This document shows, piece by piece, positions 15,886-38,645 of a stretch of 64,000 bases of DNA. The notes under the pieces are model-generated. The model ran no database searches. It saw nothing but the letters and a program-made list of their open reading frames with translations, and was not told where the DNA came from. Numbering within the stretch: position 1 is the stretch's first letter; every line of letters begins with the position of its first letter. Position numbers and translations under genes: made by a program. Source of the DNA: Candidatus Omnitrophota bacterium (GTDB taxonomy: Bacteria; Omnitrophota; Gorgyraeia; Zapsychrales; Zapsychraceae); contig JAJDCB010000024.1 of assembly GCA_029261065.1 (NCBI GenBank), forward strand, positions 102,364 to 166,363, given 5' to 3'.

Positions 15886-16248
15886 TCAAGTTAACGCCTT
15901 AGAAATCGCCTCAAGAACTCTTGCATCATCAAATGGTTTAACAACATAATCAACAGCCCCTAAACGAATTGCTTTCATTAAGGATTCTCTTTGGTCAATG
16001 GCTGTAACCATTATAATTTTTGCAGCCTTGTCAAAGGCAAGAATTTCTTCTAAAGCTTCAATACCAGTTTTCTCAGGCATAACTATATCCATTGTAACTA
16101 AATCAGGCTTTAGATCCTTGTATAACTTCACAGCTTCTTCACCGTTGTTCGCCTCACCTACAACCTCATAACCCTGTTCTGTCACAATATTCTTTAACTT
16201 TAAACGAATGATTGGCGCATCATCAGTTAATAATAATTTTTTTGACAT
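15886..16248 (-). CDS. cheY: Chemotaxis response regulator CheY
   Basis: LLLTDD ... VTMDIVMPEKTG ... IIMVTA ... YVVKPF. 120 aa, single domain. Confidence 0.85.
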   Translation of the reverse strand: MSKKLLLTDDAPIIRLKLKNIVTEQGYEVVGEANNGEEAVKLYKDLKPDLVTMDIVMPEKTGIEALEEILAFDKAAKIIMVTAIDQRESLMKAIRLGAVDYVVKPFDDARVLEAISKALT

Positions 16249-16265
16249 AACTATGCTCCATTTTT

Positions 16266-16916
16266 CTACTTTTCTTGCGCATAAAATTTAGTGGTAGATA
16301 TCCCCAATAATCGAATTTGTTCTATAATTTTTGCCATTTCATTGACGGATAACTGAAGATTTTTTACAAGAGGCTTTAAATCCTCCCTCTCCTCATCAGA
16401 TTTGAATTGATTTAATTTAGCTTCCAAAACGTCCAAAGACCCCATTAAGACTGCTAAGGGCTGACTTATTTTATTCGTATGCTCACCTGCCACATCTAAA
16501 ATTGACTTTGCAGATGTCATTTCAATGGCAATAAGATGCGTATTGACACGAGCTATTAATTCTTCAGAAGATGTCCCCTTTTGAACAAAATCATTTGCTC
16601 CGGTTTTTAATAACATCACTCTCACATCATGTGATTCATTAGCCGTAATCATAATAACAACAATATGTTGTAACTCTGGGTTCGAACGTACCTTTTTTAA
16701 AAGTTTTTCACCATTTATATCAGGCATTTCATAGTCGCATAAAACGAGATCTACCTTATTATTTTCTAAATATTTTAACCCCTCACTACCAGAACCAGCA
16801 ACTGAAACCGTATACCCAGCCCCATCTAACATCGCTTTGTAAAGATCTCGTGAAGCCTGGGCATCATCAACAACTAATATTTTGTAATCTTTCTTTTTTC
16901 TTTTTAGAATGACCAT
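16266..16916 (-). CDS. Response regulator: N-terminal receiver plus about 90-aa C-terminal helical domain of unknown type (contains a His in ...AGEHTNKISQPLAVLMGSLDVLEAKL...)
   Basis: Receiver hallmarks ILVVDD, LVLCDYEMPDING, IMITA, FVQKG. The C-terminal region is helical/coiled-coil with no recognisable DNA-binding or enzymatic motif. Confidence 0.75.
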   Translation of the reverse strand: MVILKRKKKDYKILVVDDAQASRDLYKAMLDGAGYTVSVAGSGSEGLKYLENNKVDLVLCDYEMPDINGEKLLKKVRSNPELQHIVVIMITANESHDVRVMLLKTGANDFVQKGTSSEELIARVNTHLIAIEMTSAKSILDVAGEHTNKISQPLAVLMGSLDVLEAKLNQFKSDEEREDLKPLVKNLQLSVNEMAKIIEQIRLLGISTTKFYAQEK

Positions 16917-16943
16917 AGGTTCCTATTTTTGTTAGTAGCTCAA

Positions 16944-17351
16944 TTACACTAATTGAATATCTGATTCATTAAGCCTTGAATTTCTCAATTTTATTATTTC
17001 AATTATCTGTTTAAACATCTCCATATGAAAGGGTTTAAATATAAAATCTAGAGCCCCACTGCTTAATACTTCTTTAACTTGTGATTCTGTTGCATAACCA
17101 GCCATCATAACGGTAGTTAACAATGGATTACGCATGTGTATTGTTTTCATCAATGACATACCATTGATCATAGGAAGTCTCAGCTCTATTAAAACAACTT
17201 GATATTTCTTTTTACTCATTATTAGCATAGCTTCATCAGCATTAGAAGCAAAATCTGCACTAATATTATTAAGATTTAAATAATCAACAACGCACTTTGC
17301 AAATAATACATTGTTATCTACAACTAAAACATTGAAATCATTTGTTTTCAA
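16944..17351 (-). CDS. Atypical receiver-domain protein with Glu in place of the phospho-acceptor Asp
   Basis: Receiver fold positions VLVVDNN ... VVLIELRLPMINGMS ... TTVMMAGYAT ... IFKPF. The position equivalent to CheY Asp57 is Glu (LIELRLP). 4-bp overlap with the downstream gene. Confidence 0.7.
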   Translation of the reverse strand: MKTNDFNVLVVDNNVLFAKCVVDYLNLNNISADFASNADEAMLIMSKKKYQVVLIELRLPMINGMSLMKTIHMRNPLLTTVMMAGYATESQVKEVLSSGALDFIFKPFHMEMFKQIIEIIKLRNSRLNESDIQLV

Positions 17352-17947
17352 ATTCCAGCCCCAAAACCTAGAATGCGTTCACTCCCATCAATTGGCAGTA
17401 AATACATATGACAGTTTAATTCTGTTTCAACAATCTCAAATAAACTTTCTATTAATAAAATTTTATCTTCCTGCAAAGCCATATCCATTATTAACTCAGA
17501 GAAAAGTGTTCCAGAGAAATCACGTATAACAGAAGGTGGCTCAGGTAACATCTTTATCTGAAAGTCTGATGCAAAAACATTAGAGATGGCACTTGATAAT
17601 ATATTACCAATTTCCTGAACAGTACTTGAAACATATTCATCATATGCTTTTGTTGTACCAACCTTTTGTCCTATAAATAGATCTGTTAATATGAAAGCAT
17701 CTTCTAGTTGAACATAAAATAAAAATTTAAAGGGCGCATCGCCCGACAACAAAATAAATGATCCAATGGCCTCGAAGTCAGATTGATTTACGCTAGCCGT
17801 TATCTCTGTAATATCTACAAAATTGACATTCTTTAATTCAATTTTTGCAGTTGTGTTAAGCATCTTAGTCAATACTTCTGAGGATTTTTCAATGCTGTGT
17901 TCAGCGACTAGCTGTACCGCACGATTTACATTTTCATTTGATTCCAT
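17348..17947 (-). CDS. cheC: CheC/CheX-family CheY-P phosphatase (single recognisable active-site motif)
   Basis: S-x3-E-x2-N motif (STVQEIGN) followed by a Pro about 19-20 residues later. 199 aa. Position immediately upstream of cheD as in cheC-cheD operons. First-half motif degenerate. Confidence 0.55.
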   Translation of the reverse strand: MESNENVNRAVQLVAEHSIEKSSEVLTKMLNTTAKIELKNVNFVDITEITASVNQSDFEAIGSFILLSGDAPFKFLFYVQLEDAFILTDLFIGQKVGTTKAYDEYVSSTVQEIGNILSSAISNVFASDFQIKMLPEPPSVIRDFSGTLFSELIMDMALQEDKILLIESLFEIVETELNCHMYLLPIDGSERILGFGAGI

Positions 17948-17951
17948 TTAA

Positions 17952-18437
17952 TTAAAATTCCTCTGGTTCTTCACCAAAAACACGACAATGAACCTTACCA
18001 GTATCCAAAAAAAAATCAACTTGAACACCCTTATCTCCACCCGTTTTTGAGTTTATGATACGAATGTTGTGTTGTTTTAGAATAATTTTTGTAGCATCAA
18101 TGTTTTGTTCACCTATATTACTAGTTACCATCCTCAAAACTTTTCCTCCACCAAAAATCTTTGCCGTCAAAGAGTCTTTAGGGATTGTGTATTGTTTTTT
18201 CATTGATTCTAGTAAATCATGGATGCCTGTATCTGCAAACTTAGCACGTTTAAAAGTGGGTTTTTCATGATGACCGGATGAGTCCGGTAACATTATGTGC
18301 AGCATACCACCAATTTTTTTACTATCATCATATAAACATATGGCTATACACGAACCTAATGTTGTACGAATAACATATGGAGCTTCACCAATTTTATAGT
18401 CTCCTATACCAACGACTAACTTATTATTTTCTGTCAT
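17952..18437 (-). CDS. cheD: Chemoreceptor glutamine deamidase CheD
   Basis: VVGIGDYKIG ... LGSCIAICLYD ... GGMLHIMLPDS; catalytic Cys and His blocks present. 161 aa. Confidence 0.85.
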   Translation of the reverse strand: MTENNKLVVGIGDYKIGEAPYVIRTTLGSCIAICLYDDSKKIGGMLHIMLPDSSGHHEKPTFKRAKFADTGIHDLLESMKKQYTIPKDSLTAKIFGGGKVLRMVTSNIGEQNIDATKIILKQHNIRIINSKTGGDKGVQVDFFLDTGKVHCRVFGEEPEEF

Positions 18438-18490: not shown

Positions 18491-21286
18491 TTAGCGAACA
18501 TTAACTTTTTGCTGCGCTTCACGGATAATTGATGTTGCATCTAAAATAAGAGCTATACTTCCATCTCCTAAAATCGACGCACCACTTATGCCTTGGACAT
18601 CTGAAAAATGGTCCGGCAAAGATTTAATAACAATTTCGTCTTCTCCAATTAACCGATCAACTTCCACTCCAATTGTTTCATCCCCATCTGTAAGAACCAC
18701 GATTTTCCTTGAATTTTTATTTTCATTACTTTTGGTATTCATCCTTAAAATTGTTTCTAGATCAACTAGGCTTAAGGCATGACCTCTTAATTTTACTGTT
18801 GTATTTCCCTCTACTGAGAAAATGGAGTCGTCTTCAACTTTAATAATTTCAGAAACACATTCTAATGGCATAGCAAAAACTTGATTATTGATAACCACTA
18901 AAAGAGCTTGAATAATGGCTAAAGTAAGAGGAATCTTAATGCTAAAATTTGTTCCTCGACCAAGTTCAGTATCGATTTCTACCGTTCCATTTAATTCTTC
19001 AATAGTTCTACGCACAACATCCATACCAACACCACGACCTGAAATACCGGTAATTTGTGCAGCTGTACTAAAACCTGGCATAAATATGATTTGAAATTTT
19101 TCTTTCTCTGTCATTTGATCTAGCTTTTCTTGTGTCAGTATTCCTTTTTCTAAAGCTTTTTCAGATAGTTTGTTTGAGTCCAACCCTTTACCATCATCAT
19201 TAATTTGGATACATATATTATTTCCTTCATAAGATGCTGACAATTTAACTGTTCCCGCTGCTGGTTTATCTGTTAGAGCTCTATCTTCGGTTGTTTCTAT
19301 ACCGTGATCAACAGAATTTCTAATCATATGTGTTAAAGGGTCCCCCAATTCATCAACAATTTTTTTATCAAGCTCTGTTTCTTCACCATAAATCTCTAAA
19401 TTAATATCTTTTTTTAATTCTTTAGCAATATCGCGAACCAACCTTTTAAAACGAGTAAAAACGCCCTCAATAGGAACCATCCTCGTTGACATCACACCTG
19501 ATTGGATGTCGCTTGATAATTTACTCAAAGCGCTGGTCGCCTCATCGAGACTATAAAGTTTTGTGTTAACCTCTTTCATTGAAAGTTTGTTCGATAAATT
19601 AAACATCTCAGATTCCAGTAAGCCAAAAATTTTATTCAATCTATTTGCATTTGCATTCTCATCCCCGAGTGATTGGGATGAATTTTTTCTTAACGCCATC
19701 TTTAATTCAGCAATTTTTCCACCAACTTGACTTAAACGCGTAACATTTTCCTTTGATTGTGAAACTTCATGTTTAACCTCACTAACCAACTGTGCAAATT
19801 TTGCTCTCGTAATTACAAGTTCTCCTGCTAAATTCATAAGGCTATCTAGCCTCCTAGTATCGATACGCATTGTTGTCACTTCAACGCCAGCAGTTTTGGT
19901 TGTTGATGGTGTTTCTTTTTCTTTCATAGCAACCTCTTTTTTTACAGTTTTTGTTGGATTTGCCGTTTTTGTCGTAGGAGCAACTTCTTGAACTAAAGAG
20001 ACTTCTTCTTTTTCAATATTAATTACTTCAATTTGATCAATGCTAATGGCAATATCAATGTCCTTTAACAATTTTGAGGTTGTCAAAATGACACCAACGT
20101 ATACGGCCGTTTCTACATTATCATCGATTAATTCGACATCAGGTTTACAATGAATAATTTCTCCTAGCATGGCTAATTTTTCATTACAAACATTTGCTTT
20201 AATGTTTTTTGTTACACAATTTGCATCAACAGCATAACTGACTCGAAACACATTTAATCCATCTTTTGTTGCATTCTCTTTTAAAGCTGTCAAGTTTTCA
20301 GGCAAATCACTAAATAATTGTGAAACATCAACAGAGTCACCTGTCGTTTCATTAAGAGATTTAGTTGATTTTTCAAGTTTTAATTTATCAATACATTTTT
20401 GAAGCTTTTGAATGACATCAGTATTATTCAAAAGGGCATAGTTTGTTTCGCGAATTTGAGCTGCGGAGTTTTTTATCCAATCAATCCCTATAAATAATGT
20501 AGAAACTATATCCGATTCAGGAACTAGCTTTTCTTCCCTGTATTTTGACAACAAATCTTCCATTTTATGCGCAACAAGTTCAATATCGTTTCTTTTAATT
20601 ATGCCAGATGAGCCTTTGATGGTATGTGAAATTCGAAATAATTCATTAACAGCTTCAATAGGATCAACTTTATTTTCTTCAAGTTGAATCATAACTTCAT
20701 TAAAACGATCAATATTTTGAAATGTATCATCTAAATAAGCTCCCACATATTTTAAAAAATCCTCGCTAGGGGCAGCTACTTCAGTCGCGGCTTCTACAGG
20801 CGGCGTTATTTTTTCTTGAGAAACACCAGCTTCTTCACTTGTCGTTTTAGCAGAATCTGTTTTCCCTGATGTTCCATCTAAAACGGCTTTTATTTCAGTA
20901 ACAACATCAGTGGTGTCCCCTTCATCCGTACCATCCGATTTTAAACGGTCCAATAAAGAACTCAATGTATCAAAAGCGTTGAATAAAACATCTATAATAT
21001 CAATTGTAAGCACAAGTTCACTATTTCGAACACGATCAAGAATGGTTTCCATCTCATGCGTTAATCCTGAAATATTTGAAAAATCAAGAAAACTTGCGGT
21101 GCCCTTAATCGTATGTGCCGCCCGAAACATTGTGTTTATCATATCTACAGAGACTTCTTCATCATTCTTAAGAATTTCTTCAGCTTTAAGAAGATTATCA
21201 TTTAACTCTTGTAGATATTGTTCACTTTCTGAGAGGAATTCAGCAATAATTTCGCTTCTATCATCGTCTATCTCTGAGTCACTCAT
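18491..21286 (-). CDS. cheA: Chemotaxis histidine kinase CheA with two N-terminal Hpt (P1) domains
   Basis: Two H-x-x-K-G phospho-His motifs (AAHTIKGTASFL; ISHTIKGSSGII) separated by a Ser/Thr/Glu-rich linker. HATPase_c blocks (HGIE..., GRGVGMDVVR) and a C-terminal CheW-like P5 domain. 931 aa. Confidence 0.95.
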   Translation of the reverse strand: MSDSEIDDDRSEIIAEFLSESEQYLQELNDNLLKAEEILKNDEEVSVDMINTMFRAAHTIKGTASFLDFSNISGLTHEMETILDRVRNSELVLTIDIIDVLFNAFDTLSSLLDRLKSDGTDEGDTTDVVTEIKAVLDGTSGKTDSAKTTSEEAGVSQEKITPPVEAATEVAAPSEDFLKYVGAYLDDTFQNIDRFNEVMIQLEENKVDPIEAVNELFRISHTIKGSSGIIKRNDIELVAHKMEDLLSKYREEKLVPESDIVSTLFIGIDWIKNSAAQIRETNYALLNNTDVIQKLQKCIDKLKLEKSTKSLNETTGDSVDVSQLFSDLPENLTALKENATKDGLNVFRVSYAVDANCVTKNIKANVCNEKLAMLGEIIHCKPDVELIDDNVETAVYVGVILTTSKLLKDIDIAISIDQIEVINIEKEEVSLVQEVAPTTKTANPTKTVKKEVAMKEKETPSTTKTAGVEVTTMRIDTRRLDSLMNLAGELVITRAKFAQLVSEVKHEVSQSKENVTRLSQVGGKIAELKMALRKNSSQSLGDENANANRLNKIFGLLESEMFNLSNKLSMKEVNTKLYSLDEATSALSKLSSDIQSGVMSTRMVPIEGVFTRFKRLVRDIAKELKKDINLEIYGEETELDKKIVDELGDPLTHMIRNSVDHGIETTEDRALTDKPAAGTVKLSASYEGNNICIQINDDGKGLDSNKLSEKALEKGILTQEKLDQMTEKEKFQIIFMPGFSTAAQITGISGRGVGMDVVRRTIEELNGTVEIDTELGRGTNFSIKIPLTLAIIQALLVVINNQVFAMPLECVSEIIKVEDDSIFSVEGNTTVKLRGHALSLVDLETILRMNTKSNENKNSRKIVVLTDGDETIGVEVDRLIGEDEIVIKSLPDHFSDVQGISGASILGDGSIALILDATSIIREAQQKVNVR

Positions 21287-21307: not shown

Positions 21308-22357
21308 TTAGTTTAGGTTACAGATTTTTGAGATGGCTTTACTAAAATTTTGAATATCTAATTCTAAATCAACAGCACCAGCGTTGTTAGCAGCTTTTGG
21401 CATTCCGTAAACAACACAGCTTTCTTCATCTTGCCCAAGAACATAGGCACCTTTTTCATGTAATTTGACCAGCCCTTTTGTTCCATCATCACCCATACCT
21501 GTTAATATCAATCCTAATATACTCCCTTTAAAATTTTCACTTACAGAGTCAAATAGCACATTACACGATGGACAAAAACCAGAAACTTTTTCTTCTCCAG
21601 CTAAAGATAAATAAGGACCCGTGGAACCAGATTTAAGTCTCATTTGAACTCCTCCACGCGCTAGATAACACCAACCTTTTTTTATTTTGTCTCCCTCTTC
21701 TGCTTCTTTGACATTAATTTTTGATAATTTGTCTAATCTTTCAGCAAAACTTTTTGTAAATTTTTCAGGCATATGTTGAACCCAAACGATCGGAGGACAT
21801 TCTTCTGCTAAATGTGGTAAAAATGCAGTTGATGCCTGAACCCCTCCTGTTGACGATCCTAGTGCAATTAGATCAATTTTTCTCTTAGGTAGTACGCTTA
21901 AATCAAATATCTTCTTTTTCGTTATGTTGCCATCTGGTGCTGTTTTATTAATAAGCTTAAACTTATTACGTAAAATAATACCCTCTATTTTACGAACAAG
22001 AGTATGAATTATCTCATCAATGCCTAAGGCATCCGATGCTGGTTTGACAAGATAATCAACAGCCCCATATTCTAAGGCTTTAATAGTTACTCTAGAGCCT
22101 TCATTCGTCAAAGAACTAAACATAAAAACAGGTAGTGGACAATCCTTCATGATACATCTCAAGGCTTCAAGACCATTCATGACAGGCATTTCGCAATCTA
22201 ATATTAACAAATCAGGCTTTTTTAATTTAACTAAATCAATAGCTTCTTTGCCATTTTTGGCCTGACCAACAACCGAAACTTTTCCTGTAGCTTCTAATTT
22301 TTCTTTTAAAACACTTCTTAAAAAAGCAGAATCATCTGCTAAAAGTACATTAGTCAT
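21308..22357 (-). CDS. cheB: Chemotaxis methylesterase/deamidase CheB (receiver plus methylesterase)
   Basis: N-terminal REC (VLLADDSAFLR ... LLILDCEMPVMNG). C-terminal catalytic triad blocks GSSTGG, VQHMP, GMGDDG. Confidence 0.95.
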   Translation of the reverse strand: MTNVLLADDSAFLRSVLKEKLEATGKVSVVGQAKNGKEAIDLVKLKKPDLLILDCEMPVMNGLEALRCIMKDCPLPVFMFSSLTNEGSRVTIKALEYGAVDYLVKPASDALGIDEIIHTLVRKIEGIILRNKFKLINKTAPDGNITKKKIFDLSVLPKRKIDLIALGSSTGGVQASTAFLPHLAEECPPIVWVQHMPEKFTKSFAERLDKLSKINVKEAEEGDKIKKGWCYLARGGVQMRLKSGSTGPYLSLAGEEKVSGFCPSCNVLFDSVSENFKGSILGLILTGMGDDGTKGLVKLHEKGAYVLGQDEESCVVYGMPKAANNAGAVDLELDIQNFSKAISKICNLN

Positions 22358-22363: not shown

Positions 22364-23179
22364 TTAAGTTGATTTCTGAAACATACTCGAACGAATGAGT
22401 GTAAAATTTGAATTTATATCATTGATAGTTTCCGACAAACTTATAAACAAATAACCGTTCGATGCAACATTTTTTTCAACATTTGAAACAATTTCTTGTT
22501 TTGCTGGTTGATCGAAATAGATAAGAACATTTCTCATAAATATAATATCAAATTCTTTTTCAGAAAAGGCCTTTTTTAAATTGTGATTTGAAAATTGAAC
22601 CTTATTTTTTATAGAGTCAATAACTTTATATTCTGGTTTCGAGCCTTTAGATGCTTCTTCAATAGTAAAATATTTTGACACAAGAGAGTCCGGTGTTTGT
22701 CTTAAGCTTCTTTCATCATAGACGGCATTTCTAGCAAAGCTAACAACAGACGTATTGATATCTGAGGCAAAAATAGAATAGGTTATGCGTGAATTTTTTT
22801 TTGTAAATTCTTTTAAAAGAATAGAAAGGGAATAGGGCTCTTCGCCTGTCGAACAGGCAGCACACCAAATTTTAATTTTTGACTTTTTTTCAGCAAGAGT
22901 AGGAAGAACGACATCATACAAATAATTCATTTGAACAGAATGTCTAAAAAAATATGTTTCATTTGTCGTTATAGCATTTATAAATTCTTCAGTTTCTTCA
23001 CTATTAGGTTTCTTAACAACATCAATATACTCAGCAAAATCTTTTAAACTTAGTTCATTAACACGTTTGCCTATACGAGCACTCACCAAATGCTTTTTTG
23101 AGTCTCGTAACATGACCCCTGTTTTTTGATACATCAAATCTCGAATTTTTTTAAAATCAATATCTGAAATATCTTCCAT
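22364..23179 (-). CDS. cheR: Chemotaxis protein methyltransferase CheR
   Basis: CheR N-terminal helical domain plus SAM-MTase core (IWCAACSTGEEPYSL). 271 aa. Confidence 0.9.
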   Translation of the reverse strand: MEDISDIDFKKIRDLMYQKTGVMLRDSKKHLVSARIGKRVNELSLKDFAEYIDVVKKPNSEETEEFINAITTNETYFFRHSVQMNYLYDVVLPTLAEKKSKIKIWCAACSTGEEPYSLSILLKEFTKKNSRITYSIFASDINTSVVSFARNAVYDERSLRQTPDSLVSKYFTIEEASKGSKPEYKVIDSIKNKVQFSNHNLKKAFSEKEFDIIFMRNVLIYFDQPAKQEIVSNVEKNVASNGYLFISLSETINDINSNFTLIRSSMFQKST

Positions 23180-23184: not shown

Positions 23185-23697
23185 TTATTTAGTATTACCT
23201 ACTCCTATTTCTCTAATGACATCTTCTTGTAACTTGCCTAAATCAATAATTGTCACCATTCTCCCTTCAAGTTCGCCAATACCAACAACGCAATCTTTAT
23301 CAATATTTGAGGCAACAGATGGGGCTGGGTCTATTTTTGATTTTGACAATTTAATGTTTTCTAATATTTCATCAACAATAAAACTAAAAGAAACACTACC
23401 GACCTCAGCGACAACAATTTTTGTTTTTTCACTAAAGGCAACATCCGCCAAATTAAACTTAATTCTTAAATCAAAAACACTGATTACGCTACCTCGAATA
23501 TTTATAACGCCTAAGACAAACTTAGGCATTTGAGGAATGTGCGTAATCATTTGAACACGATTGACTTCTTGAATATCAATAATCCTAACGGCATATTCTT
23601 CGTTTGCAAGTTTAAAACAAACGAATTGCTCCACATCATCAGAATCTTCCACATTTTGAATGTCTAACATATTGTCAACTGTTAAGTCTTCTACCAT
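23185..23697 (-). CDS. cheW: Chemotaxis coupling protein CheW
   Basis: 170-aa CheW-like domain (FVCFKLANEEYAVRIIDIQEV...VINIRGSVISVFDLR). Confidence 0.9.
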   Translation of the reverse strand: MVEDLTVDNMLDIQNVEDSDDVEQFVCFKLANEEYAVRIIDIQEVNRVQMITHIPQMPKFVLGVINIRGSVISVFDLRIKFNLADVAFSEKTKIVVAEVGSVSFSFIVDEILENIKLSKSKIDPAPSVASNIDKDCVVGIGELEGRMVTIIDLGKLQEDVIREIGVGNTK

Positions 23698-30458: not shown

Positions 30459-31040
30459 TTAGCTCTTAATTTTGTCTATCGGTAACAAAACAAAATCAAC
30501 AACTAAAACCTTCTTTTTCTTTATGAAGAAACTCATTTCTGTTAACTTTTCTTCATTATAATTAAATTCCACACCCTCAGGCACATCATTTCTATATTTT
30601 AAAGGGGCAGAAATAATTAACTCACCATAACCTTCATTTTTGATATCATTTTTAGTTTTTCCAGAAATAACATTATGAATTTCACCGCAATTATCCATAA
30701 CAAACTCTTCATCTTCATCATCAAACCCAGTTTGCCCCAAGGCTTTTAATAGCTCCCGAGCATAAACCTCTTCTACATAAAAAACCATAGTTCCACAGGT
30801 ATCTTTACTGTCAAATTTTGATTTATCAGCATAAAAATTAATAACTGAAATAAAACAGGGTCCATTAAATTTCTGAAGACCAAAAACTCTCATGCGGCTT
30901 TCATATTCAATGATATCTTTTTCCTCAAATTCAGGATCCTGGGAGAAAATAGCGCTAGCCATTGTTTCGCAGGTTTCTTCAACGGCTTTCATAACAATTT
31001 TAATTATTGGGTCATTTTGAATAACATCTTCTTCACTCAT
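30459..31040 (-). CDS. cheX: CheX-type CheY-P phosphatase
   Basis: Exact CheC/CheX/FliY consensus D-x3-E-x2-N-x22-P present once: DNCGEIHN followed by 22 residues then P. 193 aa. Confidence 0.7.
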   Translation of the reverse strand: MSEEDVIQNDPIIKIVMKAVEETCETMASAIFSQDPEFEEKDIIEYESRMRVFGLQKFNGPCFISVINFYADKSKFDSKDTCGTMVFYVEEVYARELLKALGQTGFDDEDEEFVMDNCGEIHNVISGKTKNDIKNEGYGELIISAPLKYRNDVPEGVEFNYNEEKLTEMSFFIKKKKVLVVDFVLLPIDKIKS

Positions 31041-31064: not shown

Positions 31065-32933
31065 TTAATCATTCAAAACATTACTTACATCGAAACGTAA
31101 ATTATCTCTTAAAGTGTTTCTCTTAGTCTCAACAGCTTCTTCTTCCTCTTGGCTTGATTCAAACGTTTCAATATCTGATTGCGTTGATAAAAGATTATCA
31201 AAATATTTATCCATTTGCGTATTAAGCAATCTTTCTACTTTTTCACCTCTTAAAACTTCATCTTTTTTAGTTTTTTGAATTTCCCCTTTGTTGATATTTG
31301 CAAAATCAAATGCCAATTTGTTTAGTACAAAGATAGAATCTTTAAGGTAATGAGAAATTTTCATACTATTATTAAAGTTGACAACATCTTTCGAAGGATC
31401 TGTGGCATTTTGCTTTAATTTATCTAAAACATTATTAAGTTGATCAATTTGTTTTAAATTTCTCAAATATATCTCTTCGATAAACTGAAAATTATTTTGC
31501 GACCTCTCTACATATTGTGACAAATCCTGCAAATTATTTAATGATGAACTTTTGTAATGGTTAAAGTGCTTTACCCCTTTTAATATTCCCTCATTTGTCA
31601 TATTAACGGCTTTAGTCATTTTCTGAGAGAGAATAAGCAAGTCTTTTACGTCCGAGGTAGAGTCAGTACCTTTTTTTGCTTTGGTCCGTTTAGGAGCTTG
31701 TTTATCTTTTCTTTCAATTTTTCTAATAATTTTCTCAATCTGTTTTGAAACGCCTTGCATGGTCTGCGTTAAATCATTTAAGTTATTGGAATGAGCATAA
31801 TAACCAACGATGCTCTTATTGACATCTTGAACTTGTTGGTGTTGATCTTTTATTATCTGTTTATTCTTTTGATATTGAATGTAGACCTCTTTAATCTTAG
31901 TTTGATTCCCCTCCATTTGTGCTGTCAATTTTGTAATTTCGTTCTCAACGTTTTTTGTTAAAACATTTCTATCGTGATAGGATGTTAATGCCATGTAAAA
32001 AGACTCGATAAATTCTTTAACATATTGCGTTAATCTTCTCGTTTCACCCTGTAATTCCGTTGTTGATTCTTTATAACTGCCTAAAATGTTGCGTACATAG
32101 TAAGCAATGAGTAGCAAGAATATAAAAATTGATCCAAGAATTAATATTTGAAATGTTTTGCTTCCGTTATTTTTTAATACTGTAGAATAGACTTTAGCAT
32201 CATAATTTTGTCGATTTTTGCTATCTAATCGTCTTAACCCTAAATGCAAACTTAAAAATGTAGTCTCGAGAATCTTTTTAGAATTATTTATTGACCTTTC
32301 ATATTCACTATTTAATTTTGTGGCATAAACCTCAAGCTTGTCTAACCTGTCTATAAGTTCAAGTTTTATAGCTCCGATCTCTTCTATTCCGTTTACGGCA
32401 TTAACAACTAGAGAAAGTTCATTTAACGCATACCCCAACAAACGATCTTTTTGGGCCAAACTTTCGTTTTGTTCAACAAATAAATTCACAGCATCTAACA
32501 TCTTTTGTGTTTCCCCACCTTCACCTTCTGGATTAGGAAACTTTAGATTAAGTTGATTGATTTGAAACTCTAAAACTGCTTTTCTTTTATTATCGAGATA
32601 ACCAATATTTCTTATCTCACTTTTTATTTTTAATAATTTCTTTGAGTCAATTTCAGGAAAGCCGTTGAGATGAGAAATCAAAAGATTAATTTTTTTATCA
32701 ATTACTTTTTCGTGAGACCCAGAGTGAGGAGAATTTTCAAATACCTGATCTGTTAGGGATTGGACACCATTTAATTGCTGAGTTGAGAAATCTAATCGTG
32801 CTCGAATACGATCAAATTTTTGATGGCTTGAGTTTAATTCGATGAGTGATTGAGGACGTGTCAACATGTACGTGACACCAATCATAAATATAAATACAAA
32901 ATATAGTAAAAATCGAAGAATAGTTTTATTCAT
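31065..32933 (-). CDS. Two-TM membrane protein with about 225-aa periplasmic helical region and about 350-aa cytoplasmic coiled coil; no recognisable MCP signalling, HAMP or kinase motifs
   Basis: TM1 ILRFLLYFVFIFMIGVTYML, TM2 FQILILGSIFIFLLLIAYYV. Cytoplasmic part is heptad-rich with an acidic C-terminus. Sits inside the che supra-locus. Confidence 0.6.
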   Translation of the reverse strand: MNKTILRFLLYFVFIFMIGVTYMLTRPQSLIELNSSHQKFDRIRARLDFSTQQLNGVQSLTDQVFENSPHSGSHEKVIDKKINLLISHLNGFPEIDSKKLLKIKSEIRNIGYLDNKRKAVLEFQINQLNLKFPNPEGEGGETQKMLDAVNLFVEQNESLAQKDRLLGYALNELSLVVNAVNGIEEIGAIKLELIDRLDKLEVYATKLNSEYERSINNSKKILETTFLSLHLGLRRLDSKNRQNYDAKVYSTVLKNNGSKTFQILILGSIFIFLLLIAYYVRNILGSYKESTTELQGETRRLTQYVKEFIESFYMALTSYHDRNVLTKNVENEITKLTAQMEGNQTKIKEVYIQYQKNKQIIKDQHQQVQDVNKSIVGYYAHSNNLNDLTQTMQGVSKQIEKIIRKIERKDKQAPKRTKAKKGTDSTSDVKDLLILSQKMTKAVNMTNEGILKGVKHFNHYKSSSLNNLQDLSQYVERSQNNFQFIEEIYLRNLKQIDQLNNVLDKLKQNATDPSKDVVNFNNSMKISHYLKDSIFVLNKLAFDFANINKGEIQKTKKDEVLRGEKVERLLNTQMDKYFDNLLSTQSDIETFESSQEEEEAVETKRNTLRDNLRFDVSNVLND

Positions 32934-33077: not shown

Positions 33078-33485
33078 TTAGACGAATCGAAAATCAGACA
33101 TTTTACTTTTTGCTTCAAGAATAACATTAACAATGTCTGCTCTACTAACAATACCAACTAATTTCCCATCCTTCGTAATCGGAACACGACGAATATGATT
33201 TCTTATAAAAAACTTACAAATATCAATGGCATCATCATTTTCGTTAAAAGAGATAACATCTACAGTCATGTAATCTTCTACGTTGTTTTTAATATCGAGA
33301 TTTTTGTCGAGTAAAATACGTAACACATCTTTTTCTGTAAGAATACCTACAATAGATTCATGTTCGTCAACCACGGGTAAACCGCTGACTTTATTTTTAG
33401 AAAGCAAATCTAGAGCCTCATAAATCGGTGTTTTTGCTGATACCGTGTGGATATTTGTACTCATGATAGACTGAATTGAAAGCAT
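33078..33485 (-). CDS. CBS-domain pair protein
   Basis: Two CBS motifs (VSGLPVVDEHESIVGILTEKDVLR; IRRVPITKDGKLVGIVSRADIV). Strong SD AAAGGAGG about 7 nt upstream of the ATG. Confidence 0.85.
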   Translation of the reverse strand: MLSIQSIMSTNIHTVSAKTPIYEALDLLSKNKVSGLPVVDEHESIVGILTEKDVLRILLDKNLDIKNNVEDYMTVDVISFNENDDAIDICKFFIRNHIRRVPITKDGKLVGIVSRADIVNVILEAKSKMSDFRFV

Positions 33486-33684
33486 TTTTGCCTCCTTTAA
33501 AATTGGTTTGATTTCAAGTCTGAAAATAAAAAAGTCCGAGAATGAAACCCTTAATGCAGACTATATAAGTATAATACGTATTTAACACATGCGAAAGGCA
33601 AAATAGCAATTCAATTATTACTTCATAAGTTGTTGAAATTAAAAGGCTTACAAAGTAAAAATTATCTAAAACATGAGATTTATC

Positions 33685-34158
33685 CTAATATAACAATTTT
33701 TCGATGGCAGAAAGCAATTCTGGCGTCTGAAACGGCTTTTTCATATAAAAATCAACCCCCGCATCCATCGCCTTTTCCTTCGATTCATCGTCCACCGAAC
33801 CTGTAAGCATTATGACCGGAATTAAAGGTTCCTTAAATTGATCCTTGATTCTAGCTGTTAACGCGGATCCATCCATATCTAATAATTGTCCATCTGTAAT
33901 CACCAAATCAGGCTTATTCATTTGCAGGACATCAAGTGCCTCTTGGCCAGACAAGGCCGTTAAAACTTCAAAATTTTTTGATCGAAGGATGTATGCCAAT
34001 AATTTAATAAGATCTGGGGCATCATCGATAATGAGAATTTGAAAAGATTGTTTCTTCACAACTTCACTAACTTTTTGTAGAAGGCAATAAAAAGAAGAAT
34101 GTTGAACCTTTACCAAGTTCTGACTCAACCCACATTTTGCCACCATGACGTTCAACAA
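33685..34158 (-). CDS. Receiver-domain response regulator. Real start probably GTG at 34059 (about 124 aa) rather than the track start, which overlaps the kinase gene by 92 nt.
   Basis: ILIIDDAPDLIKLL ... LVITDGQLLDMDG ... VIMLTG ... YMKKPF. In-frame GTG 7 nt after the kinase stop codon gives MKKQSFQILIIDD. Confidence 0.8.
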   Translation of the reverse strand: MLNVMVAKCGLSQNLVKVQHSSFYCLLQKVSEVVKKQSFQILIIDDAPDLIKLLAYILRSKNFEVLTALSGQEALDVLQMNKPDLVITDGQLLDMDGSALTARIKDQFKEPLIPVIMLTGSVDDESKEKAMDAGVDFYMKKPFQTPELLSAIEKLLY

Positions 34159-35893
34159 TAATTTTTGATATTACCAAACCTAAACCGGTATTTCCCGACT
34201 CTCTTCTCGCACCCGTCGTTAACTGTCCGAATATTCTAAATAATTTTGAAATATCTTCTTTTTTAATCCCAACGCCTGTATCTTTAATTGCAATACAGAT
34301 AATGCCTTGCTGCACACTAGAAATAATGGAAACTCCACCCTTTTTTGTAAATTTTGTTGAATTTTCAATCAAATTTAACAAAACCTTCTCAATTTTTTCT
34401 TCATCAAACATGCAAACTGGTAACTCTTTATCTAATTTCAGAGTGATTTCAAGTCCTTTCTCTACAATTGCTGGCTCGCATTTATCTTTAACGCTTTTAA
34501 TTAAATCATTAATATTTCCTTGAGCTAATTTAAAATTTGTTTTTCCCATTTCAAGCTTTTGATAATCAACAACATCATTGATGAGACAGTCCAATCTATC
34601 TAAATTTCTTTTTGCTGTATTTAAAAAGTCTTGTTGCTCTTCGCTAATATCACCGGCCGAACCATCCAAAATTATACCTATACTCCCTTGAACAGCTGTT
34701 ATTGGACTTTTTAATTCATGGGCAACCATATTTAAAAAATCATCTTGCATCTTTGATGCCTTTTCAATACCTTTTTCAGCAATTTTTCGCTTACTTACAT
34801 CATTAAGGACCCCGATAGATCCCGTCACAACACCTTCTTCATTCTTTAATATACTTAAAGTTAATCCAACATCAATTATCTTATTATCTTTTCTTTTTAT
34901 TTTTGTTTCAATATTATGCCGACTTCCTGATTTACGAAAATCCGCTGATCTAATTTTCTTCCATTCCTCAGGTGGATAGAGCAAACTCACTTGTTGCAAG
35001 TACAACTCTTTTTTTCCCATACCTAAAAGCTCTTCCGTATTTTTATTCCAAGAAACAATCCTTTCTTGATCATCAACAAACATAATCGAGACGCCGGAAT
35101 TTTCAAATATTAATTTGTAGCGCTCCTCAGCTTCTTTTGCATCAACTTCCACTTGATTTAGTTCTCTGTCTCGATTAGAAAAATTTGTAATATCCGTAAT
35201 GACAACCAGTATTCTCGAAGGCTTACCATTTTCATCTCTAATTAAATTTTCAGACACCAAACCAATCTTGATGGAGTTATCTTTTGTTCGCAATTCTATT
35301 TCATAAGGTTCTAAATCTTCGCCTTCGAGTCGATCGGAAAATTTTTCTAATATTCTCATTTTGCTATCTTTTGGAATAAAGGGTAACATTAAAATATTTC
35401 TCCCCACATATTCCTGTATATCATATTGCAACCAGTCTGATAATTTATTATTTAACTTCACAATCTTTCCGTTTATGTCCACCACAACAATTGCTTGTGG
35501 GGATAGGTTAAATATCATTTGATAATCGAGAGGCTGTGGCAAACTTTGTCCTTTGAGACTAAGGTTTTCTTCAATAAGAAGTCTCGCGACATTGACACTA
35601 TTACTCCCTAAAATATCAGCATGAGCAGGCTTCTTCTCTTTTAATTCTTCATGAATATCTAATTTTCCAGAAACATCAAAAACGATATTTAAGGTTGGAT
35701 CTTTAAGAAAAGGATTAAAATCGGAAGCTATTTGAAGACCTAATCGATTGGCCAATTCAATGGCGGGGGTATCCAATTCGGAGGCAACAACAGCAAGGAT
35801 ACGCACGGTTGTTGTGTTACTTAAAATTTCAAGCAGAGACTTACAATCATCGCCTGATCCAATAATAAGAGCGCTATATCCGCTATTTGACAT
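34067..35893 (-). CDS. Cytoplasmic sensor histidine kinase (N-terminal unknown domain, PAS, PAS, HisKA, HATPase_c)
   Basis: H-box MVAHELKSPITAV. ATP-lid blocks (LIENSTKFTKKGG; DTGVGI; GNTGLGL). Two PAS-like segments. No TM helices seen. Confidence 0.9.
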   Translation of the reverse strand: MSNSGYSALIIGSGDDCKSLLEILSNTTTVRILAVVASELDTPAIELANRLGLQIASDFNPFLKDPTLNIVFDVSGKLDIHEELKEKKPAHADILGSNSVNVARLLIEENLSLKGQSLPQPLDYQMIFNLSPQAIVVVDINGKIVKLNNKLSDWLQYDIQEYVGRNILMLPFIPKDSKMRILEKFSDRLEGEDLEPYEIELRTKDNSIKIGLVSENLIRDENGKPSRILVVITDITNFSNRDRELNQVEVDAKEAEERYKLIFENSGVSIMFVDDQERIVSWNKNTEELLGMGKKELYLQQVSLLYPPEEWKKIRSADFRKSGSRHNIETKIKRKDNKIIDVGLTLSILKNEEGVVTGSIGVLNDVSKRKIAEKGIEKASKMQDDFLNMVAHELKSPITAVQGSIGIILDGSAGDISEEQQDFLNTAKRNLDRLDCLINDVVDYQKLEMGKTNFKLAQGNINDLIKSVKDKCEPAIVEKGLEITLKLDKELPVCMFDEEKIEKVLLNLIENSTKFTKKGGVSIISSVQQGIICIAIKDTGVGIKKEDISKLFRIFGQLTTGARRESGNTGLGLVISKIIVERHGGKMWVESELGKGSTFFFLLPSTKS

Positions 35894-35900
35894 TCTTAAT

Positions 35901-38645
35901 TTAGTCCGTTTTAAGATTTGCTTGTTTTAATAATTTAGAAACGCAGGATAATAATCCATCACGATTAAATGGTTTGGAAAGATGTTCATCTGCACCAGCT
36001 TTTTTAGCAGAATTAATAAGACTTAACGATGTATGTGATGTTAGTAATATTATGGGAATAATAGCTGTCTCTAGGCGAGATTTCAAAATGTTGATTGCTT
36101 CAACTCCATTCATTCCCGGCATATCATAATCAATGACAATCAAATCAGGCTTTTCTTTAAAAGTAGTCACCACACCTTCTTTACCATTACTTGCCTTTAT
36201 AACACTGTATCCTGAAAATTCCAAGATTTTTACAATAATCTTTTGGACATCTTCATCATCTTCAACAACCAAGATTCGAGACCCACTACTTTTTGGTTTC
36301 TCACGCACTTGGGGCTTGATTATTTTCTTTTTCTTTTCGACAATTATTTCTTCTTTTGGTGCACTCTCCTCCGAAATAATATCTTTAACAATATTTTCTT
36401 CTGGTTCTTGAGTTTCAAAAACAATAGGTTCTTTTTCAGCTTCAACAAAAGGCACATCTTCCGAAACAATCGGTACTTCTGAAACTTCTATTTTTGACTC
36501 AAGGGCAGCCTCAAGAGCTAATTGCTCTTCATCCAAATCTATAGCATCTTCTTCATCTAACTCAACCTCATTGCTTGTTTCATTTGTTTCGATTTCCTTA
36601 TCTTCCTCTTGATTTTCAACGGCTTCTTCAGGTTCTATGGTTTGATCTTCTTTTAATATTTCAACAGGTTCTATTTTTTTTACTTTTTTAACAACTTTAG
36701 CTTTCTTTACTTCTTTGACTTCCTCAACAGCTTCCTGCGCCTCTATTTCCTCCAACTCCGCTACAGGTTCTGTTCTTTTTGGCACTTTTTTCTTTTTAAC
36801 CACTTCAATTTCTTCAGATAACTCATCGTCAATATCGTCGTTAACCTCCATAGTTCTATGTGACAGTTCAGAATCATCCTCCTCCACAGGCGGCAATGTC
36901 TCGGCCCCCTTGGTTAATGTCCCTACAGATTTTGTAACCTCTTCAAAAGTTGTAATCCCTTGAGCAATTTTCTCTATCGCAGAAATTTTTATCGCTTTAA
37001 ATCCACCCCTTATAGCTGTTTTTCTAATTAAAGCTTCATTCGATCCTTTTGCAATAATGTCTTTTAATTCTTGTGTAATTTTTAAAACCTCAAATACGGC
37101 TGTTCGTCCAAAATAACCTGAATAACCACACTGTTGACATCCATCCCCTTTATAAAATTTTGTAATATTATACTCATCGATCAAATCTTGATATTCTTCT
37201 AAATAATCAGCATCAGGCGTATATTCAACCTTACATTTGCTACAAATAACTTTTACTAACCGTTGACTAACAATTAAAATAACAGCTGAACCAATCATAT
37301 AAGGATCAATACCAATATCAGCCAATCTTGAAATTGTAGCAATGGTGCTATTGGTATGCAGAGTGGATAATACAAGATGACCTGTAATAGAAGCTTTTAA
37401 TGCTATTTCAGCCGTTTCTAAATCCCTAATTTCTCCAATAAGAATAACGTTAGGGTCTTGACGTAAAATACTTCTTAATCCAGAAGCAAACGTGACACCT
37501 CGAGCAGGATTAACTTGAATTTGATTAATCCCCTCATTAACAAATTCAACAGGATCTTCAATCGTAACAATATTGGTTGTTTCACTTTTTACATAATTTA
37601 GAGCAGCGTATAACGTAGACGTTTTACCAGATCCTGTTGGTCCTGTTACAAGAACCATGCCTTGCGGCTGAGTAATCGCTTTTTGAAAAGCATTCGCCTC
37701 TTTTTCATTAAATCCAATTTTTTCCATATCCGTCTTAGCTTCAGCAGCATCAAGAATTCTCGCTACAACTTTTTCACCGTAATACGTTGGAATCGTTGAG
37801 ATACGAAAATCCACCTTTCGTCCCTGGACAAGCAAATTAATGCGACCATCTTGAGGTTTCACATCTTGAGCGATATCTAAATTTGCCAATATTTTAATAC
37901 GCGCAATCATCTTTGAATGCACGTTTTTAGGAACCTTCATAATATTTTTTAAATCACCATCAACACGATACCTAACATCAACATTTCCTTCTCGTGGTTC
38001 TAAATGAATATCACTGGCCCTTACTTTAATCGCATCACTTAATATTAAATTGATTAATTTTACGGTGGGACTACTATTTTCTTCTGTTTCAGCAATATCA
38101 ACCGTCTGACCGCCAGACATTTCAATATGAATACCACTAGGATCTTCTTCTTGAACAGCAGCTTCAGCTTCTTCCTCAGCACTCTCATCAACAACATCAT
38201 TCATCGCATCAAATAATTTATCATTAGATTGATAATACTCTTCAATATGTGTGTTAATTTCGCTTCTTGGAGCCAAGACGGGTTTTATAGGGACATCGTA
38301 AATATATCTTAAATCATCAAGAGCAACTACATCGTGAGGATTGCTCATGGCCAAAATTAAATTATCATCTTCTAAACAAATAGGAAATACGCCATGACGT
38401 TTGGCTAATTCGTAATTCATTTTTTTAACAACTTCAGGATCCAGATTCCCATTTTCAATATGATAAACTTGCATCTTAAACAAATCAACAGAAATGTCTA
38501 ACAGCTGTTTTTCCTTAACATAGCCTAACTCTATTAAAGCTTCATGAACTGGCACTTTTAAAACTAAATGTTTTGCTTTAGCTTCTTTAAGTTGCTCTTC
38601 GCTTATTAATTGGTTTTTTAATAGTTTATCAACTAAAGATGCCAC
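35901..38645 (-). CDS. GspE/PilB-family type II secretion / type IV pilus assembly ATPase fused to a C-terminal receiver domain through an about 215-aa Glu/Lys-rich linker
   Basis: N-terminal T2SE_N/MshEN-like domain. Walker A GPTGSGKT. Tetracysteine CSKC...CQQC. C-terminal REC: RILVVEDDEDV ... LIVIDYDMPGMNG ... IILLTS ... LSKPF. Start is GTG (38643-38645) with strong SD AAGGGAG 5 nt upstream. Confidence 0.9.
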   Translation of the reverse strand: MASLVDKLLKNQLISEEQLKEAKAKHLVLKVPVHEALIELGYVKEKQLLDISVDLFKMQVYHIENGNLDPEVVKKMNYELAKRHGVFPICLEDDNLILAMSNPHDVVALDDLRYIYDVPIKPVLAPRSEINTHIEEYYQSNDKLFDAMNDVVDESAEEEAEAAVQEEDPSGIHIEMSGGQTVDIAETEENSSPTVKLINLILSDAIKVRASDIHLEPREGNVDVRYRVDGDLKNIMKVPKNVHSKMIARIKILANLDIAQDVKPQDGRINLLVQGRKVDFRISTIPTYYGEKVVARILDAAEAKTDMEKIGFNEKEANAFQKAITQPQGMVLVTGPTGSGKTSTLYAALNYVKSETTNIVTIEDPVEFVNEGINQIQVNPARGVTFASGLRSILRQDPNVILIGEIRDLETAEIALKASITGHLVLSTLHTNSTIATISRLADIGIDPYMIGSAVILIVSQRLVKVICSKCKVEYTPDADYLEEYQDLIDEYNITKFYKGDGCQQCGYSGYFGRTAVFEVLKITQELKDIIAKGSNEALIRKTAIRGGFKAIKISAIEKIAQGITTFEEVTKSVGTLTKGAETLPPVEEDDSELSHRTMEVNDDIDDELSEEIEVVKKKKVPKRTEPVAELEEIEAQEAVEEVKEVKKAKVVKKVKKIEPVEILKEDQTIEPEEAVENQEEDKEIETNETSNEVELDEEDAIDLDEEQLALEAALESKIEVSEVPIVSEDVPFVEAEKEPIVFETQEPEENIVKDIISEESAPKEEIIVEKKKKIIKPQVREKPKSSGSRILVVEDDEDVQKIIVKILEFSGYSVIKASNGKEGVVTTFKEKPDLIVIDYDMPGMNGVEAINILKSRLETAIIPIILLTSHTSLSLINSAKKAGADEHLSKPFNRDGLLSCVSKLLKQANLKTD
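35904..36281 (-). other. Receiver (REC) domain portion of the GspE-REC fusion protein (approximate coordinates)
   Basis: Last about 126 residues contain all receiver signature positions (DD, D, T/S, K). Confidence 0.8.

Follow-up and report, generated by a model that had tools for sequence, protein, structure and literature searches.

A same-strand run of signalling genes in an Omnitrophota contig: a chemosensory gene cluster beside a PilB-like ATPase-receiver module

Does a long run of signalling genes on a single strand encode one signalling system, or may it be a mosaic of independent modules? The question is raised by a 64,000-nt window (the whole stretch of DNA that was analysed) from Candidatus Omnitrophota, in which positions 15886-38645 carry a set of chemotaxis-type (Che) genes and, at the 5′ end of the run, the gene of a pilus-type ATPase fused to a receiver domain (ATPase-REC). 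A first reading of this DNA, the original prediction, had described the 23 kb as one system that feeds a single receptor signal to several outputs. We prefer a composite reading with two circuits, i.e. separable modules, of a kind frequent in Candidatus Omnitrophota, that stand side by side, and we consider this reading, taken as a whole, to be moderately probable.

Gene order in the window and in related contigs

The run can be divided into unit 1 (38645-33685), which contains the genes for the ATPase-REC, a PAS histidine kinase and a small receiver, and unit 2 (31040-15886), which contains the Che genes; a CBS-pair gene and an ORFan stand between them. In the related loci (numbered with an L below), a PAS/HisKA kinase gene lies directly 3′ of the ATPase-REC gene in L086/L087, L088/L089, L171, L172 and L173, and a partial one in L170. 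The kinase gene often overlaps the ATPase gene, and one or more small receivers usually come next, as in L086 and L088. Four of the six readable contexts (L088, L171, L172 and L173) have no Che genes near the ATPase module, and a Che cluster without the ATPase module is found in L174 and L175. The assembly GCA_028280285.1 has both on different contigs, JANQMA010000020 (L171) with the ATPase module and JANQMA010000044 (L174) with the Che cluster. The order in L086, by contrast, is ATPase-REC > PAS kinase > REC > CheY > CheX > CheV > PilZ > MCP > MCP > CheW > CheR > CheB > CheA (MCP, methyl-accepting chemotaxis protein), with no genes between the two units. Because the adjacency recurs in L086 and yet the units are separate elsewhere, gene order suggests that the supra-locus is very probably a recurrent, non-obligate neighbourhood of separable modules. 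The idea of one 23-kb system is thus not borne out, as the ATPase-REC/PAS-kinase block forms a module of its own.

The interval contains 22 open reading frames (ORFs) of at least 117 amino acids (aa) and one of 55 aa. All 23 are on the minus strand, so that the direction of transcription is 38645 -> 15886. The coding density is 96.7%, and only three intergenic gaps exceed 100 nt (199, 144 and 121 nt, at 33486-33684, 32934-33077 and 27297-27417, respectively), in agreement with the earlier description as nearly gap-free and all on one strand. Searches with Pfam hidden Markov models recovered every gene that had been named, at its predicted place on the minus strand, and upheld the Che assignments. 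The Pfam E-values of the locus proteins range from 1e-7 to 1e-131, and the gene content is therefore far above chance. The GC content of the locus is uniform and equals that of the flanks, and horizontal transfer was discarded as its origin on these grounds. A scan of the DNA yielded no tRNA and no Rfam matches. The flanking genes are housekeeping genes, i.e. a pyridine-nucleotide oxidoreductase and a transhydrogenase on one side, and an isochorismatase and an acetyl-CoA synthetase on the other.

Scans for promoters and terminators gave counts at the level of shuffled sequence. Each of the three largest gaps holds a promoter-like site, and the gaps coincide with the module borders; this is only suggestive as a hint of transcription-unit borders. 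Among named homologues, those nearest to the ATPase-REC, CheA and CheV carry the label Candidatus Omnitrophota/Omnitrophica in the overwhelming majority of cases, and identical proteins are on record only in one NCBI contig and in the Logan assembly of SRR15505515. Two of the related loci, L005 and L006, came from a CheV scan of the genome collection, the other matches of which were mostly CheV loci of Bacillota. A metagenome scan with the ATPase-REC returned mostly generic receivers, and the partial L090 was its sole relevant locus.

The PilB-like ATPase, its kinase and the genes between the units

Unit 1 and the two genes that follow it comprise these features, in the direction of transcription:

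35901..38645, minus strand: PilB-type pilus/secretion ATPase-REC (Pfam MshEN, T2SSE at 439 bits, REC)
34067..35893, minus strand: cytoplasmic PAS-PAS histidine kinase (Pfam PAS x2, HisKA, HATPase_c)
33685..34059, minus strand: single-domain REC, acceptor D56 (Pfam REC, 92.7 bits)
33078..33485, minus strand: CBS-pair protein (Pfam CBS x2)
31065..32933, minus strand: ORFan of 622 aa, all-helical (no Pfam or NCBIfam match)

The ATPase has an MshEN-fold N-terminus, a Walker A motif (GPTGSGKT at aa 335) and two CxxC motifs (at 468 and 503), and it ends in a receiver with the acceptor D839. It had been labelled GspE, but it scores higher as PilB. Its best PDB matches are the PilB proteins of Geobacter and Myxococcus (5zfr, 3jc8 and 5tsg; ~440 bits over residues 4-572), compared with 377 bits for GspE. 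The NCBIfam PilB model TIGR02538 gives 615.4 bits, which is under its equivalog cutoff of 675.65, and the GspE model gives 544 bits; PilB is the best-scoring ATPase family. On these scores the protein is better called PilB-like. The c-di-GMP (cyclic di-GMP) motif of MshEN domains is a tandem of the 24-residue sequence RLGx2(L/V/I)2x2G(L/V/I)2x4Lx3Lx2Q (PMC6957770). Read by eye, the N-terminal repeats of the window ATPase, SLVDKLLKNQLISEEQLKEAKAKH and PVHEALIELGYVKEKQLLDISVDL, do not match it: the R, the first G and the final Q are absent in both, and the second G is absent in repeat I.

The MshEN-T2SSE-REC architecture is present in 120/120 top homologues, and the receivers of all 120 conserve D13, D57, T87 and K109; this domain is under strong purifying selection. 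It is PhoB/MtrA-like and not CheY-like; its identity to E. coli CheY is 22%, versus 33-35% for the two CheY proteins of unit 2. The stretch aa 573-790 is a very acidic low-complexity linker of ~215 aa, rich in lysine and glutamate. Most members of the family have ~700 aa and a short linker, and the other long members have an extra N-terminal domain instead. No paper on PilB-REC fusions was found in the literature searched.

The PAS kinase (H-box His392) starts 7 nt past the ATPase gene. It is likely to be the cognate phosphodonor of the ATPase receiver, because its gene directly adjoins the ATPase-REC gene in every readable related contig. The ATPase receiver has its own tightly coupled kinase, and CheA is therefore not needed as a donor; the distribution of one receptor signal to several outputs, as had been proposed, is speculation in view of this kinase. 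The small receiver gene likely starts with GTG at 34059, 7 nt past the stop of the kinase gene, and the listed TTG start (34158) is less likely. A T2SSF (PilC-like) gene after the ATPase module is present in L088/L089 only. In L172 and L173, both JGI contigs, a receiver precedes the ATPase-REC/PAS-kinase pair, which is followed by more kinases and three to six single receivers, i.e. a dense multi-receiver relay without Che genes.

Large ORFs are located 5′ of several ATPase-REC genes. Window positions 53387-63967 hold a coiled-coil ORF of 3526 aa, 15 kb 5′ of the ATPase-REC gene, with weak Filament and Tup_N matches only. It is ~25% identical over >2000 aa to a giant ORF in L171 (1-6864), which lies ~3 kb 5′ of the ATPase-REC gene with four small ORFs between. 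Further large ORFs are found in L086 (479-3253; 924 aa) and L088 (2-4201; at least 1399 aa), together with a protein of ~420-445 aa directly before the ATPase-REC gene; the 924-aa ORF has weak Pfam matches of coiled-coil type. A giant coiled-coil ORF may thus be a recurrent associate of the ATPase-REC.

The CBS gene lies between the gaps of 199 and 144 nt, the largest of the run, and is probably a separate transcription unit. It had no tblastn match in any related locus and appears to be specific to the window lineage at that position. The 622-aa ORFan is a putative membrane protein, with hydrophobic segments at its N-terminus and near aa 255-278. A phmmer search against 1.84 billion representative proteins returned only the protein itself, and no counterpart in the related loci and no similarity to the MCP were found. 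Its AlphaFold2 (AF2) model, made from the single sequence, is all-helical and too poor for a fold search (predicted local distance difference test, pLDDT, 42.8).

The chemosensory unit

Unit 2 comprises the following 18 features, again in the direction of transcription:

30459..31040, minus strand: CheX with GEIHN motif (Pfam CheX)
30031..30420, minus strand: CheY-a, canonical receiver, D56 in DWNMPNM (Pfam REC)
28341..30014, minus strand: tandem CheX-CheX (Pfam CheX, two stretches)
28164..28331, minus strand: ORF of 55 aa with one hydrophobic helix, putative gene (ORF list)
27787..28143, minus strand: free Hpt, H65 in HRIKG (Pfam Hpt, 32.9 bits)
27418..27771, minus strand: divergent receiver, D53 kept, D13N (Pfam REC, 45 bits)
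26370..27296, minus strand: CheV, CheW plus REC, acceptor D241 (Pfam)
25981..26379, minus strand: PilZ (Pfam PilZ)
23722..25980, minus strand: MCP chemoreceptor, dCache-HAMP-34H, transmembrane (Pfam MCPsignal, HAMP)
23185..23697, minus strand: CheW (Pfam CheW, 112.8 bits)
22364..23179, minus strand: CheR methyltransferase (Pfam CheR, 180 bits, and CheR_N)
21308..22357, minus strand: CheB methylesterase, REC acceptor D54 (Pfam CheB_methylest, 190 bits, and REC)
18491..21286, minus strand: CheA, 931 aa, P1a(H58)-P1b(H221)-P2-P3-P4-P5 (Pfam)
17952..18437, minus strand: CheD (Pfam CheD, 91.5 bits)
17348..17947, minus strand: CheC-type phosphatase (Pfam CheC)
16944..17351, minus strand: pseudo-receiver, D13N, D57E, T87A (Pfam REC, 73.7 bits)
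16266..16916, minus strand: REC-X, canonical receiver D61 plus predicted C-terminal hairpin (Pfam REC)
15886..16248, minus strand: CheY-b, Thermotoga type, D54 (Pfam REC, 100 bits)

The set is complete, with MCP, CheW, CheA, CheR, CheB and CheD all above the Pfam gathering cutoffs, and no CheZ was found among the window ORFs of at least 100 aa. The predicted pathway, complete, of the Che type, unusually rich in receivers and phosphatases and devoid of CheZ in the window, is therefore genuine. Some of its counts had to be adjusted. The receivers were aligned to E. coli CheY. Nine receivers lie inside the interval, fewer than the ten or more that had been counted; the tenth is a canonical single-domain receiver beyond the locus (11495-11905), past the isochorismatase and acetyl-CoA synthetase genes. 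Seven of the nine are canonical (D12/D13, D57, T/S87 and K109), and the acceptor aspartate is kept in eight; the receiver at 27418 has D13N, and the one at 16944 carries the three replacements listed above and had rightly been called a pseudo-receiver. The counts of four CheC/CheX and three Hpt domains were correct. The catalytic E-x2-N is present in all four phosphatase domains (GELLN and GELIN in the tandem CheX, GEIHN in the single CheX, and QEIGN in CheC), and the phospho-accepting histidine is kept in all three Hpt domains (H58 and H221 of CheA, H65 of the free Hpt).

In CheA, Pfam finds two Hpt stretches, with His58 and His221, as had been predicted, followed by P2 (30 bits), dimerisation, HATPase and CheW-like domains, and no receiver domain. 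Both HTIKG-type His motifs are found in 72 of 73 CheA homologues, and the CheA proteins of this Che type have ~900 aa. Orthologues share a mean identity of 52% in P1a and 40% in P1b, and P1a and P1b are 28% identical to each other, both within and between proteins. Because this value is far below the identity of orthologues, the duplication is old and the two copies have been maintained separately.

The sensor region of the MCP had been called double-Cache-like; scanned alone, it matches dCache_1 just over the cutoff (46.3 bits, cutoff 45). Its heptad class was determined by alignment to E. coli Tsr (36H). Two symmetric deletions of 7 residues are found ~80 residues on either side of the hairpin tip, and the receptor is therefore of class 34H. 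A 379-aa protein with two PilJ-N domains and no MCP signalling domain is encoded outside the locus at 11926-13065.

The pilZ gene has a 10-nt overlap with cheV and abuts mcp, and its location between cheV/cheW and mcp is common to this Che type. The motifs RKYSR (RxxxR) and NISVGG ([DN]xSxxG) are intact, as they are in the syntenic PilZ proteins of five related loci (6/6), and the protein is predicted to be a c-di-GMP receptor. A second stand-alone PilZ is encoded at 43239-43634, and its neighbour is a 166-aa protein without a family match (region to 44211). From the gene orders of the related loci, cheV would be the first gene of the core che operon. The 121-nt gap 5′ of cheV holds the best promoter-like site of the strand (27359-27332, 10/12 matches), in a scan that is at chance level overall, and an OprB porin gene is found directly 5′ of cheV in L006 and L175.

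The gene orders are as follows: L005, CheX-CheY-CheX-...-CheW-CheV-PilZ-MCP-MCP-CheR-CheB-REC-REC-CheA; L006, CheX-CheY-CheX, four unrelated genes, OprB, CheV-PilZ-MCP; L174, MCP-CheX-CheY-CheX-CheW-PilZ-MCP-CheW-CheR-CheB-CheA-CheD-CheC-CheY-CheX-...-REC::CheX; and L175, OprB, CheV-PilZ-MCPx3-CheW-CheR-CheB-CheA-CheD-CheC::REC-CheY-Hpt. Several proteins are well conserved among these loci. The identity of CheV is 55-62% in L005, L006, L086 and L175, that of CheY-a 69-70% in L005, L006, L086 and L174 (versus 48% for CheA), that of CheY-b 74-76% in L174 and L175, and that of CheD 58-62% in L174 and L175. Orthologues of the single CheX stand before the CheY gene in L005, L006 and L174, and L175 likewise has a free Hpt beside a CheY. 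The CBS gene, the ORFan, the small transmembrane ORF (without a homologue in the related loci) and the tandem form of CheX are confined to the window among the compared loci.

Two gene fusions were observed, CheC::REC-X in L175 (13223-14389) and REC::CheX in L174 (15167-16123). They suggest that the CheC/CheX phosphatases may have targets or partners among receivers besides the two CheY proteins. Because the related clusters share several CheX/CheC genes (L174 and L175), fusions and two CheY families, the high density of receivers and phosphatases is a property of this Che class and not of the window locus alone.

CheC aligns with T. maritima CheC (2f9z/1xkr); of its active sites, the first (N-terminal) is degenerate and the second has kept an intact QEIGN. 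The model CheC_Thtogales of NCBIfam gives 70.7 bits, under its cutoff, and the best matches of both CheC and CheX are Thermotogales models. The best PDB match of CheY-b is T. maritima CheY (1tmy, 133 bits), and those of CheY-a are the CheY proteins of H. pylori and E. coli. The pseudo-receiver gene overlaps cheC by 4 nt. The tail of REC-X has a weak HisKA score (21.9 bits, under the cutoff) and is predicted to form a DHp-like two-helix hairpin with His146; in the AF2 model the helices comprise residues 136-168 and 174-214, with a pLDDT of ~70-79 there. REC-X was discarded as a kinase, given that it has no ATPase domain and that the HisKA score is under the cutoff.

PDB matches to CheX span both halves of the tandem CheX, which ends in an acidic tail of ~190 aa with the repeated motif [DES]xLxxLxx[AVL]. 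The tandem form appears to be rare, because a word-indexed protein search returned only two matches, the protein itself and one single-CheX protein outside any Che cluster; exact look-ups of the protein gave no record. Five copies of an amphipathic motif (e.g. DPLAMLQNAV, DPLTALQNAL and DPLEALNKAV) are found in aa 166-480, i.e. the linker and the acidic tail, and the distant single-CheX protein (P0002) has the analogous repeats DAKQLLNDLIGA and DAKNLLSSLINA. These repeats resemble the docking peptides for phosphorylated CheY (CheY-P) at the N-terminus of FliM and the C-terminus of CheZ; by this analogy the tandem CheX might be a tethered phosphatase.

Proposed circuits, alternatives and known systems

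According to the composite reading, the PAS kinase of unit 1 would sense a cytoplasmic cue and phosphorylate D839 of the ATPase, with the small receiver as a co-target or sink. Phosphorylation of D839 would act as a switch on an extension motor similar to that of type IV pili, either on its activity or on its binding to partners. The receptor of unit 2, together with CheW and CheV, would control the dual-P1 CheA, the two P1 domains of which may feed different receivers (CheY-a, CheY-b, CheB, CheV and REC-X). CheR, CheB and CheD would adapt the receptor, and CheC and the three CheX domains would take off the phosphate, with CheC and CheD perhaps acting as they do in Thermotoga. REC-X may be a partner of CheC, to which it is fused in L175, or a phosphate relay, with its receiver and the hairpin predicted by a low-confidence structural model. 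The free Hpt, the divergent receiver and the pseudo-receiver could serve as relay, sink or scaffold, PilZ may carry a c-di-GMP input to the array, and the CBS gene and the ORFan would be lineage-specific fillers between the units. Both circuits may converge on pilus-based behaviour. For the output of the Che unit we see about an even chance of pili or another non-flagellar target, and slightly less than that for flagella; the original prediction of an alternative cellular function in place of a flagellar one is about as likely as not on the evidence of the window.

A link to pili is supported by the PilB-like nature of the ATPase and, in L088, by the PilC-like gene on the 3′ side of the module. 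In a survey of Omnitrophota type IVa pili are near-universal, whereas flagella and chemotaxis are absent from its main text (PMC10066038). About 93% of CheA proteins with several Hpt domains belong to the alternative cellular function (ACF) or type IV pilus (Tfp) class (PMC10782961), and in Synechocystis PixG binds PilB1 once it has been phosphorylated by PixL, a kinase with two Hpt domains (PMC11181946). Several observations weigh against the composite reading. The direct adjacency of the units recurs in L086 at ~50% protein identity, and functional coupling of the units, even a transfer from CheA to the PilB-REC, is conceivable from sequence. A Thermotoga-like CheY-b and a CheA that contains P2 and lacks a receiver are traits of the flagellar F classes and not of Tfp or ACF. 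The promoter and terminator counts do not differ from chance, PilC, PilM-Q, pilins and PilT are missing from the 64-kb window, and the sample is small, with about six informative contexts per unit.

The whole 23 kb might instead be one branched phosphorelay, in which the receptor signals through CheA and the second P1 and/or the free Hpt to many receivers, including that of the ATPase, and thereby to several outputs (the pilus motor, c-di-GMP-linked functions and others). The single strand and the dense coding would fit such a relay, as would the uninterrupted passage of L086 from ATPase-REC, kinase and REC into CheY-CheX-CheV; the extra P1 and the free Hpt are plausible branch points, and multi-Hpt CheA proteins of Tfp systems feed several receivers (PMC10782961, PMC11181946). 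However, the ATPase-REC always has its own kinase and often no Che neighbours, its receiver is not CheY-like, and the Che cluster exists without the ATPase and lies on a separate contig in GCA_028280285.1. The three largest gaps, each with its promoter-like site, are at module borders, and the CBS gene and the ORFan between the modules are not conserved. We therefore regard a single relay as unlikely. An ordinary flagellar chemotaxis operon like those of Thermotoga and Bacillus, beside an unrelated ATPase under two-component control and with extra receivers and phosphatases that tune the lifetime of CheY-P, is an alternative that we consider possible, if short of probable. It would equally be served by the separability of the modules, and it agrees with the best matches of CheY-b (the flagellar CheY of T. 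maritima, 133 bits) and CheY-a, with the Thermotogales models nearest to CheC and CheX, with an accessory set typical of flagellar systems and with the next tier of CheA and CheV homologues, which is from Bacillota. Furthermore, CheA has the P2 docking domain and lacks a receiver, unlike >90% of multi-Hpt CheA proteins (PMC10782961). On the other hand, neither the 64-kb window nor the related loci examined yielded a flagellar gene, the survey mentioned above has pili and neither flagella nor chemotaxis in its main text (PMC10066038), and Omnitrophica bins of a groundwater study were without both pathways (PMC5383146). A 34H receptor is not typical of such systems, CheA proteins with a dual P1 seldom occur beyond the ACF and Tfp classes, and the PilZ inside the operon is invariant.

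A more far-reaching proposal goes beyond the composite reading and would define a new chemosensory class of Omnitrophota, with a 34H receptor, CheV, a PilZ at the array, a CheA with P2 and two specialised P1 domains, CheD, CheC and more than one CheX. In place of a flagellum it would drive a type IV pilus motor with a receiver-bearing ATPase that integrates the signals of the PAS kinase and, where the units are adjacent, of the Che unit, and the tandem CheX would be a tethered multi-site phosphatase scaffold. We consider this proposal quite unlikely.

The cells of the uncultivated phylum Omnitrophota are mostly ultra-small and are thought to be predatory or parasitic, and pili have been proposed to serve in host attachment. 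The literature searched held no description of chemotaxis in Omnitrophota, of how they sense and steer or, in the main surveys of the phylum, of flagella. Two elements stand out: a PilB-receiver fusion that is widespread, has yet to be characterised and comes with a PAS kinase of its own, and a Che type of Omnitrophota with PilZ and a dual-P1 CheA. If the proposed circuit is true, a receiver fused to a PilB-type ATPase would be a direct phospho-switch on the pilus motor, unlike the known systems, where the CheY-like protein that binds PilB is a separate one. Uncommon features come together in the Che type: each of the two P1 domains has been conserved on its own, the kinase bears no receiver, phosphatases are many, and a predicted c-di-GMP receptor is part of the set. 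Such a system would lend itself to testing how a single kinase divides phosphate between numerous receivers. For annotation, the lesson is that a long same-strand run of signalling genes may be a mosaic of independent modules.

The chemotaxis systems of T. maritima and B. subtilis belong to class F1 in the scheme of Wuichet and Zhulin, and F1-type systems are associated, not exclusively, with long 44H receptors. The window system resembles them in CheA with P2, CheW, CheR, CheB, the CheD-CheC pair and the lack of CheZ, as well as in CheX (Thermotoga) or CheV (Bacillus), and its CheY-b, CheC and CheX have their nearest counterparts in Thermotoga. It differs in the two His-bearing P1 domains, compared with the single-P1, five-domain CheA, in the 34H receptor, the four CheC/CheX domains, the nine receivers and the PilZ of the operon, and in that no flagellar genes are nearby. 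The original assignment to a firmicute/spirochaete type thus holds for the accessory proteins, which are Thermotoga/Bacillus-like, and fails for the 34H receptor and the dual-P1 CheA. In the cheA-cheW-cheX-cheY operons of Borrelia and Treponema, CheX is the CheY-P phosphatase beside its CheY, whereas the window has CheX genes on both sides of CheY, one of them tandem with a repeat-bearing tail, and CheC and CheD as well. Control of chemotaxis by c-di-GMP via PilZ is known from MapZ and CheR1 of P. aeruginosa and from the PilZ-containing receptor Tlp1 of Azospirillum. A PilZ with intact motifs that is tied to the receptor and the methylation machinery is common to these systems and the window, but the window PilZ is stand-alone and is encoded by an invariant che-operon gene between cheV and mcp.

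Receptors of the 34H type are a minor class that has been assigned to F8 (PMC11253619, PMC9321776). The receptor is shared with F8 systems, e.g. cluster II of Pseudomonas syringae; F8 membership itself rests on phylogenetic profiles of CheA and CheW. The Tax1 system of Synechocystis (PixJ/PixL/PixG/PixH) and the Pil-Chp system of Pseudomonas (ChpA/PilG/PilH) also have a CheA with more than one Hpt; there the phosphorylated receiver acts on PilB (PixG-P binds PilB1) and the second receiver is an antagonist or sink (PMC11181946, PMC10782961). PixL and ChpA have a C-terminal receiver and no P2 or dedicated phosphatases, in contrast to the window CheA with P2, no receiver and four phosphatase domains, and the window has a receiver that is fused to the ATPase and is served by its own non-CheA kinase. 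By its architecture the window system does not belong to the Tfp class, because CheA lacks a receiver, P2 is present and the receptor is dCache/34H and not PilJ-type. The window ATPase, lastly, has the MshEN N-terminus, the PilB core, the Walker A motif and the tetracysteine in common with the MshEN-type PilB/MshE proteins of Myxococcus, Chloracidobacterium and Vibrio. It does not conserve the 24-residue c-di-GMP motif and stays under the NCBIfam PilB cutoff, and it adds to the common plan a C-terminal receiver on a long acidic linker.

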